Source: Candidatus Poribacteria bacterium | GTDB taxonomy: Bacteria > Poribacteria > WGA-4E > WGA-3G | Length of the DNA stretch: 64,000 nt | Assembly: GCA_963663765.2 (NCBI GenBank) | Contig: CAXXUA010000003.1 | Location: 128,001-192,000, forward strand | Reading direction: 5' to 3' | Part shown: positions 36,651 through 37,205 of the stretch, piece after piece | Position numbering within the stretch: position 1 is the first letter of the stretch | How the letters are laid out: every line of letters starts with the position of its first letter | The notes under the pieces: generated by a model | Told to the model about the DNA's origin: nothing | What the model saw: only the letters and a program-made list of their open reading frames with translations | Databases searched by the model: none | Made by a program: the position numbers and the translations under genes

Positions 36651-37205
36651 TTAATCTCCTCCGTAAAACTTATGATAAGCAAGAACTGCTTCAAAAAAAT
36701 CAACGAAGTTTTTGAATTTATGAGTACTATCAACTTCATTAATGGCTTGGGTTAGTGCATCTTTTAGGTCACTAACTTCAGATTTCCGGGCTGCAGCATA
36801 AGCCAATTTCGGTTTCAGCATAATCAACTCGTTGCGGTTAAACTCTTCACTCATCTGGATTTTCTTTACTGCACCGTATACTTTTCGGATTTGAGCGGTT
36901 TTAAGGTTCCTTGCAAGTTTACGTCCTAAACTTTCAGCTGCAGCGACAAGTGGTTCACCACCATTCTCAATAATCTCTGAAATATCAACTTTTTGTTGAG
37001 CAACCACTTCTACTTCAACATTATTTGCAGTAGGTCCTTTTTCTGACTGTTTGATTACAAATGAAGTCACTTGCTGCCCTTCTTCAAGTTCATCAAACTG
37101 AGCATTCTTTAGCGCACTACGTGTGAAGTGAACATCTTTACCCCCATCATCAGGCTGTATAAATCCAAAGCCGGTACGTAGACTTTTAATTTTTCCTGTA
37201 GGCAT
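36651..37205 (-). CDS. csm2: Cold-shock domain-Csm2 (Cas11) fusion
   Basis: N-terminal TGKIK...[16 protein letters not shown]...LEEGQQV...KGPTANNV is a CSD. C-terminal [10 protein letters not shown]...[11 protein letters not shown]...[13 protein letters not shown] is Csm2. GAAGGAG RBS before ATG 37205. Confidence 0.9.

Follow-up and report, generated by a model that had tools for sequence, protein, structure and literature searches.

A conserved cold-shock domain-Csm2 (Cas11) fusion in the type III-A CRISPR operon of a Poribacteria lineage

The stretch of DNA analyzed here (hereafter the window; 64,000 nucleotides from the genome of a Candidatus Poribacteria bacterium, assembly GCA_963663765.2) contains a type III-A CRISPR operon on its minus strand, in which the csm2 gene (36651..37205) encodes a Csm2 (Cas11) subunit fused in frame to a cold-shock domain (CSD). 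ORF translation, Pfam, and NCBIfam all place this gene in one open reading frame (ORF) of 184 amino acids plus stop, which begins with the ATG at 37205, ends with the TAA at 36653-36651, and contains no internal stop codons. A Shine-Dalgarno sequence, AGGAG (37212..37216, minus strand, read from the sequence), lies six bases 5' of the ATG, as had been claimed by a first, sequence-only reading of this DNA that described a single ORF with its own ribosome-binding site, without giving its strand. The csm2 stop codon is followed by GGAGG and then by the ATG of csm3, and this close packing indicates that the two genes are spaced as in an operon. The protein can be divided in three parts, all encoded on the minus strand: the CSD, a five-stranded β-barrel (residues 1-65, 37011..37205; identified by PF00313, AlphaFold2, Foldseek, and phmmer), a variable linker (residues 66-78, 36972..37010; defined by its low identity, higher ratio of nonsynonymous to synonymous substitution rates [dN/dS], and absence of regular structure at residues 66-74), and the Csm2 helical core (residues 79-184, 36654..36971; identified by PF03750, the AlphaFold2 helices, the match to PDB chain 5an6_A, and Foldseek).

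Both domains scored well above the thresholds of their hidden Markov models. PF00313 (CSD) matched residues 3-64 with 56.2 bits (cut-off 27, E 3e-15) and PF03750 (Csm2_III-A) matched residues 84-183 with 104.1 bits (cut-off 24.8, E 1e-29), so that the intact Csm2 and the CSD proposed in the sequence-only reading are both borne out. The NCBIfam model for Csm2, TIGR01870, gave 67.5 bits (cut-off 30.6), although this model is of the hypoth_equivalog_domain class whereas those of the other four Csm subunits are of the equivalog class. In phmmer searches against the PDB, residues 85-181 matched 5an6_A (E 2.5e-13), named "CRISPR-associated protein, Csm2 family" by its depositors, and residues 10-63 matched Escherichia coli CspA (1mjc, E 5e-11). 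An AlphaFold2 model of the fusion built from 102 family members had a mean predicted local distance difference test score (pLDDT) of 91, a predicted template modeling score (pTM) of 0.73, and a linker pLDDT of approximately 81. It contains strands at residues 4-10, 13-18, 25-28, 45-54, and 57-65, an unstructured segment at residues 66-74, and seven helices over residues 75-180. The linker is 9 to 13 residues long. When the model was compared with solved structures using Foldseek, the N-terminal part matched CspE (3i2z_B) with E 7e-6, a target-normalized template modeling (TM) score of 0.83, and a root-mean-square deviation (rmsd) of 1.9 Å, and the C-terminal part matched Csm2 chains from solved Csm complexes (among them 6xn3_C and 6ifk_C) with target-normalized TM scores of 0.61 to 0.68. 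The fusion thus shares the helical-bundle core and the gene position between cas10 and csm3 with canonical Csm2 proteins (5an6; Streptococcus thermophilus 6ifk/6nud; Lactococcus lactis 6xn3), but differs from them in having an extra 65-residue OB-fold domain and a linker at its N-terminus: the matching solved chains are 121 to 196 amino acids long, and none matched the CSD part. The 187-amino acid Csm2 of Thermococcus onnurineus (6mur_B) also has extra N-terminal residues, the match starting at its residue 87. Altogether, these results confirm that the protein is an in-frame CSD-Csm2 fusion in which both folds are present.

The genes surrounding csm2 are those of a type III-A effector module, and all lie on the minus strand. 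Directly upstream is cas10/csm1 (37257..39575; TIGR02578, 589.6 bits versus a cut-off of 170), which contains the HD (PF01966, 42.4 bits), Cas10-Cmr2_palm2 (121.9 bits), and Csm1_B (90.6 bits) domains by Pfam. The translation also contains HD and GGDD strings, which we take to be the catalytic motifs of Cas10. Directly downstream is csm3 (Cas7; 35824..36639; TIGR02582, 236.2 bits versus 90), so the location of csm2 between cas10 and csm3 was correctly assigned in the sequence-only reading. This is followed by csm4 (Cas5; 34776..35816; TIGR01903, 255.3 bits versus 55, with a Csm4_C domain) and csm5 (33628..34842 as the longest ORF; TIGR01899, 139 bits versus 38.3). Because the csm5 match begins only at residue 27, and a homologue in another locus (L084) starts at the equivalent methionine, the true csm5 start is probably the ATG at 34779. 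All five Csm proteins are therefore above their NCBIfam cut-offs, in the order cas10-csm2-csm3-csm4-csm5, and this order is kept in 40 of 40 related loci wherever the contig allows it to be seen. Next to csm5 is a gene for a CARF-domain ancillary protein (Cas_APE2256; 32454..33599; PF09651, 104.9 bits; TIGR02619, 38.8 bits versus 37.45), which is probably Csm6/Csx1-like and which has a C-terminal R-x4-H that we presume to be a HEPN motif.

We found no CRISPR array within the 64-kb window, and neither cas6 nor cas1 adjoins the operon or occurs elsewhere in the window. A two-copy 30-nt repeat with a 37-nt spacer is located 2.7 kb upstream of cas10 (42302-42398, copies at 42302 and 42369). It was considered as a CRISPR array and rejected because its sequence occurs nowhere else in the genome; chance or a remnant may account for it. 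The rest of the genome (6.35 Mb in 15 contigs, approximately 41% GC) encodes a single Cas6 and four Cas1 proteins and contains six or more large CRISPR arrays, the longest with approximately 110 repeats, and two of its three Cas10 homologues are located on contigs other than that of the window. These sets of arrays, Cas proteins, and Cas10 lie on contigs C4 and C6. The III-A module of the window is the only one in the genome without an adjoining array or adaptation genes, and the CRISPR RNAs (crRNAs) are presumably supplied to it in trans. The csm2 fusion is the sole csm2 gene of the genome, leaving the III-A complex with no Csm2 other than the fused one.

The integrity of the fused gene was analyzed with contigs from 4 public metagenome runs (2 studies), which were compared with positions 36300-37600. 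No differing letters and no gaps were found, with the proviso that one of the 4 matching runs may be the source sample of the window assembly. The sequencing runs listed included no RNA data set. In each run, one contig covers 36797-37600 and spans the junctions between CSD, linker, and Csm2. A stop or frameshift between the two domains, which the sequence-only reading had named as evidence that would overturn it, does not occur, and the four runs are identical in their letters. In all four runs the contigs break at approximately 36783-36826, where sequencing depth is 13- to 20-fold higher. This segment encodes the invariant LKPKLAY motif of Csm2. We considered the break as a gene defect and rejected this in favor of a conserved stretch of co-occurring strains: it seems that exact runs of 32 to 37 bases at this place are common to many strains present together.

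We then determined how widespread the fusion is. In a search of proteins clustered at 90% identity, Pfam detected both domains in 102 of the best 120 clusters of 475 matches (53% to 100% identity to the query). Species-representative genomes, searched via two peptide patterns, contained 352 loci encoding relatives; among the best 80 of these, Pfam identified a CSD on the Csm2 ORF in 11 (12 of 81 when the window's own protein is included), and a twelfth CSD form, L010, is cut by the start of its contig. Ten of the 12 CSD loci come from metagenome-assembled genomes (MAGs) of Poribacteria, and one (L006) from an "uncultured bacterium". Within the 176 Poribacteria species genomes, the Csm2 family is present in 49 and the full CSD-Csm2 fusion in 18, all of which belong to one family (12 in the genus of the window, 5 in a second genus, and 1 in a third). 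The architecture, which the sequence-only reading had proposed to survey across genomes, is therefore recurrent. A cluster of 68 members in the ESM Atlas, in which Bacillota is the commonest known phylum for 20, disagrees with the genome searches made here.

Across the 102 fusion proteins, the CSD and the core had mean pairwise identities of 0.70 and 0.73, compared with 0.37 in the linker. Median Nei-Gojobori dN/dS values were 0.17 (CSD), 0.42 (linker), and 0.08 (core), as obtained from 12 coding sequences for which 51, 55, and 51 of the 66 pairs, respectively, were computable, the rest being saturated or too close. As judged from these substitution patterns, the protein has two domains under constraint and, between them, a linker that is free to vary, and the CSD is under purifying selection. 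These observations bear on the possibility that the fusion is an artefact, either an assembly or gene-calling error in which two genes are read as one, or a frame from which Csm2 is mostly made alone using an internal start. One NCBI record does contain a 120-amino acid Csm2 without CSD whose start lies inside the linker region, and there are frames of 198 to 216 amino acids that begin at other upstream starts. However, the gene contains no stop or frameshift and is identical in the four runs, the fusion recurs among protein clusters (102 of the best 120), species loci (12 of 80), and genomes of the phylum (18 of 176), and its CSD is under purifying selection. Moreover, residues 2 to 117 include no in-frame ATG, and the GTG at residue 67 is not preceded by a Shine-Dalgarno-like site. 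Bare Csm2 from an internal start was thus rejected as the main product because neither an ATG nor a Shine-Dalgarno site is found near the linker. We regard the artefact explanation as extremely improbable and, for the DNA, as effectively refuted.

The most informative comparison was that of the fusion with Csm2 proteins of Poribacteria that lack this domain. All of those examined (23 of 23) have, at the site of the CSD, an N-terminal tail of 20 to 39 amino acids composed of 19% Arg, 24% Gln plus Asn, and 11.5% Gly, with a net charge of +2 to +6. The same Arg-rich tails are seen in gene-called proteins from metagenomes, and relatives in some MAGs of Armatimonadota, Bacillota, and Acidobacteriota bear comparable tails rich in Gly, Arg, and Gln. 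Relatives from Methylococcales and Nitrosomonas have only 8 residues at this site. An AlphaFold2 model of one tail protein gave pLDDT values below 50 at residues 1-23 and above 90 in the core, predicting that the tail is disordered. The tail-bearing sister proteins (loci L012-L034 and L037) have cores 55% to 75% identical to that of the fusion and are encoded in the same operon with the appendage at the same position, but this appendage is a basic disordered tail instead of the folded acidic OB domain found here. CSD and tail forms never co-occur in one genome. In a Cas10 tree of 40 operons (780 columns, quick search, with SH-aLRT as the only branch support), the CSD and tail forms interleave, which requires at least 6 changes between them, at least 4 of these being forced by branches with support of 95 or higher; L010 is absent from this tree because its contig lacks cas10, and the branch of L038 is very long. 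In a tree of the Csm2 core the CSD forms mostly cluster together, but that tree has only 112 usable columns and poor resolution, its count of 4 changes is one too high because the truncated CSD form L010 entered it as a form without CSD, and L075 was left out of it as too short, so we relied on the Cas10 tree instead. We read the interleaving as a transfer of entire csm2 alleles, or of their 5' modules, between operons that are otherwise alike; on this reading, either appendage would function in the same complex without co-adaptation of Cas10. A link between the CSD and the CARF effector was considered and rejected, because homologues of the CARF protein adjoin both CSD and tail forms. Altogether, the distribution of the two forms points to CSD and tail being interchangeable nucleic-acid-binding appendages on a multi-copy Csm2 ridge.

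What such an appendage could do can be considered in the light of the Csm complex of L. lactis (LlCsm). According to the excerpts used of its structural description, two or three Csm2 copies together with domain D4 of Csm1 and the helical domain of Csm5 form a helical ridge, which the target RNA follows with a small interface (PMC8964682). The same excerpts report that Csm2 is easily lost from the apo complex and stabilized once the target binds, and that an N-terminal His6 tag on Csm2 allowed the whole complex to be purified (PMC8964682). That the tagged subunit pulls down the complex implies that the N-terminus of Csm2 is exposed and tolerates additions. From the solved complexes, and from the fusion being the genome's only Csm2, we infer that Csm2 is present here too in more than one copy. 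With at least two copies in a ridge that faces the bound RNA, several CSDs would be exposed along the path of the target. The sequence-only reading had proposed such an array of CSDs, and this seems reasonable in view of the two or three Csm2 copies that flank the target RNA in L. lactis (PMC8964682, as excerpted).

On this basis, we propose that the protein is the Cas11 subunit of a functional type III-A effector, that the CSD is attached to its solvent-exposed N-terminus via a short flexible linker, and that the CSDs act as auxiliary modules for binding single-stranded RNA. With a linker of 9 to 13 residues, we estimate, each CSD could contact RNA close to the subunit that carries it or to the next one. 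There, the CSDs could hold the nascent transcript beside the stretch paired with the crRNA and keep it unfolded, so that more target is captured, and they could also stabilize the loosely bound Csm2 ridge. Downstream, this would affect RNA cleavage and the duration of Cas10 activity. RNA binding by the fused CSD is what we infer here, as are all the functional consequences that would follow from it. We consider it moderately probable that the CSDs, like the Arg-rich tails, bind single-stranded RNA, hold the transcript unfolded, and help to keep the Csm2 ridge in place; in our analysis the complex probably gains an extra grip on single-stranded RNA.

Part of the sequence expected of a nucleic acid-binding face is retained in the CSD. 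The ribonucleoprotein motif RNP1, GFGFI, is identical to that of CspA in the alignment, with G14 and I16 invariant and F15 present in 97 of the 102 fusion proteins. The fusion also has the PDDG turn and the KGP-A-NV strand of bacterial cold-shock proteins. In the same 102 proteins, K7 (100), F13 (F in 83, Y in 14), H26 (H in 97, Y in 5), and F37 (101) are near-invariant, as are F27 and K/R56. We take K7, F13, F15, H26, and F37 to align with the nucleic acid-contacting positions of cold-shock proteins such as CspA. In its fold, the domain resembles CspA, CspB, and CspE (1mjc, 1csp, and 3i2z), with the same five-stranded OB fold, TM scores of 0.8 to 0.86, rmsd values of 1.6 to 2.1 Å, and 42% to 48% identity; it differs in that these are stand-alone proteins that have a VFVHF RNP2 and an aromatic pair in strand 1, both of which are lacking in the fusion. 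The only other CSD of the genome is at the N-terminus of a 308-amino acid protein (L082 1495-2418, contig C13 near 386.6 kb). This CSD is canonical (73.9 bits) and 37% identical to that of the fusion, and after it come an extended charged linker and, at the C-terminus, a weak Hfq-like match that stays below the cut-off (16.8 bits). The MPTG-R-IK start of this protein resembles that of the fusion, which hints at it as a possible source of the fused CSD.

Several observations weigh against the proposed role of the CSD. First, the three motifs listed in the sequence-only reading, GFGFI (residues 12-16), VHF (25-27), and KGPTANNV (56-63), are all present, but the second is not a canonical RNP2: VHFTR aligns without gaps to VFVHF of CspA, and only H26 and F27 are conserved in this motif. 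Second, compared with the genome's own canonical CSD, a two-residue deletion removes the aromatic pair (YY) of strand 1, and T8 and L9 are conserved at this site in the 102 fusion proteins. Third, the domain stays far below the cut-offs of the NCBIfam models for CspA (NF007679, 55.6 versus 130 bits) and CspE (NF049933, 53.4 versus 120 bits), so that the protein, although it contains a CSD, belongs to neither of these families. Residues 1-78 are moreover net acidic (9 K/R versus 12 D/E), and because an acidic CSD takes the place of basic tails, the argument for equivalent function is indirect. The dN/dS of the CSD is twice that of the core, and a pTM of 0.73 is compatible both with a CSD face that is free and with one that is packed against the helical bundle. 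Finally, a decayed copy of the operon occurs at locus L084 (1697-2911, genome G125): it lacks csm3, its Cas10 ORF is no longer than 641 amino acids, and in a 404-amino acid ORF the CSD-Csm2 sequence (to approximately residue 143) runs straight into the C-terminal portion of Csm4. Taken together, the sequence comparisons suggest that the CSD is genuine but derived, its classical aromatic platform being partly kept and partly lost.

The erosion of this platform raises the question of whether the CSD has largely lost nucleic acid binding and instead serves as an assembly clamp, fastening Csm2 to neighboring subunits or to the crRNA and thereby keeping the ridge on the apo complex. A pTM of 0.73 with a linker pLDDT of approximately 81 would allow a fixed orientation of the two domains, and the ease with which Csm2 leaves apo LlCsm (PMC8964682, excerpts) could be offset by an additional contact. 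However, RNP1, H26, F27, and F37 are near-invariant, as expected of a binding face that has been retained, the disordered basic tails of the sister lineages are unlikely to be specific protein clamps, and the swaps between CSD and tail across Cas10 backgrounds argue against a co-adapted protein interface. We therefore find a clamp rather doubtful.

A second alternative keeps the binding face and changes its ligand: the CSD could bind single-stranded DNA (ssDNA), taking hold of the non-template strand that is displaced in the transcription bubble and delivering it to the HD nuclease of Cas10. The title of PF00313 in Pfam is indeed "'Cold-shock' DNA-binding domain", and the Foldseek matches included nucleic acid-bound CSDs (3pf4 and YB-1 entries) as well as 1h95, the ssDNA-binding CSD of YB-1. 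Cas10 keeps its HD domain (PF01966), and the type III-A DNase acts on ssDNA during transcription, as stated in excerpts of the L. lactis study (PMC8964682). Against this, the Csm2 ridge follows the target RNA and not the HD end of the complex (PMC8964682, in the same excerpts). The sister lineages, in addition, carry an Arg/Gly/Gln-rich tail instead of the CSD, and such tails are more typical of RNA binders. The present results do not discriminate between a preference of the CSD for RNA and one for ssDNA, but considering all these points we judge presentation of DNA to Cas10 to be distinctly unlikely.

A broader version of single-stranded RNA binding is that the N-terminus of Cas11 is a swappable fringe for RNA capture, in which a CSD or an Arg-rich tail is exchanged between operons by recombination, altering how transcripts are found and held. 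As examples, structured targets would be melted co-transcriptionally, or Cas10 signaling would be prolonged. We put this forward tentatively; if it is true, type III systems have a layer that is not known from the descriptions of model systems. To our knowledge, Cas11 subunits are otherwise small helical spacers that line the target strand. The results obtained here suggest that selection has repeatedly placed a predicted nucleic acid-binding appendage on every Csm2 copy, in the form of a folded CSD or of a disordered basic tail. If the appendages do bind RNA, they would be a tunable element for target capture and for the timing of cyclic oligoadenylate signaling in type III immunity. They would also provide a naturally occurring template for the engineering of RNA detection tools based on Csm, given that Csm2 already tolerates N-terminal tags. 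The idea is easy to test, since matched natural operon pairs with CSD and with tail exist.

A CSD on Csm2/Cas11 was not found described in the literature that we searched, the supplementary tables of Cas domain fusions being outside this search. The remark in the sequence-only reading that CSD fusions are known mainly on Cas7/RAMP subunits of other type III subtypes likewise found no support in the papers searched. The nearest parallels come from other defense systems. In CoCoNuT McrBC-type systems, a CSD-like OB fold is present in an immune component and has been taken as a sign of RNA targeting, but the components concerned are not CRISPR subunits; in the excerpts of that work used here, type III CRISPR appears only as an analogy, and the words Csm2 and Cas11 occur 0 times in the paper (PMC11090510). 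The retron Se72 effector (NF038236) also has a cold-shock-type domain; the fusion scores 36.5 bits with this model, below the cut-off of 82, and the effector is not a CRISPR subunit. The sequence-only reading had named, as evidence that would overturn it, the fusion already being a common annotated architecture. This is true insofar as it is common in one Poribacteria family and the 68-member ESM Atlas cluster was automatically named after both domains, but the proteins themselves are named just "Csm2", the sole informative source name for full-length fusions being "CRISPR-associated protein Csm2" (JGI), and we found no paper describing them. The fusion is thus a genuine variant of a known subunit, conserved and specific to one lineage, which databases contain unremarked under a name that hides the extra domain.

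The window also contains several repeats and a group of small genes. Positions 51049-51579 hold 4.1 head-to-tail copies of a 130-bp unit (98% identity), each with a GC-rich hairpin-like core. A 40-nt core of this unit has 28 copies in the genome (≤3 mismatches), and the unit looks like a dispersed repeat element. Two inverted copies of a mini-array (6347-6424 and 45303-45380) consist of a 26-nt palindromic REP-like repeat with copies 52 nt apart; a 20-mer of this repeat occurs 587 times in the genome (≤1 mismatch), often in runs of 3 to 11 that mimic CRISPR arrays. Finally, a cluster of paralogous small ORFs (106 to 263 amino acids) occupies 42397-45887 on the minus strand. Most of their products have a hydrophobic N-terminal stretch, all have a Cys-rich C-terminal part with repeated CxxC-type spacing, and one of the ORFs holds a 21-bp tandem repeat (43701-43786).

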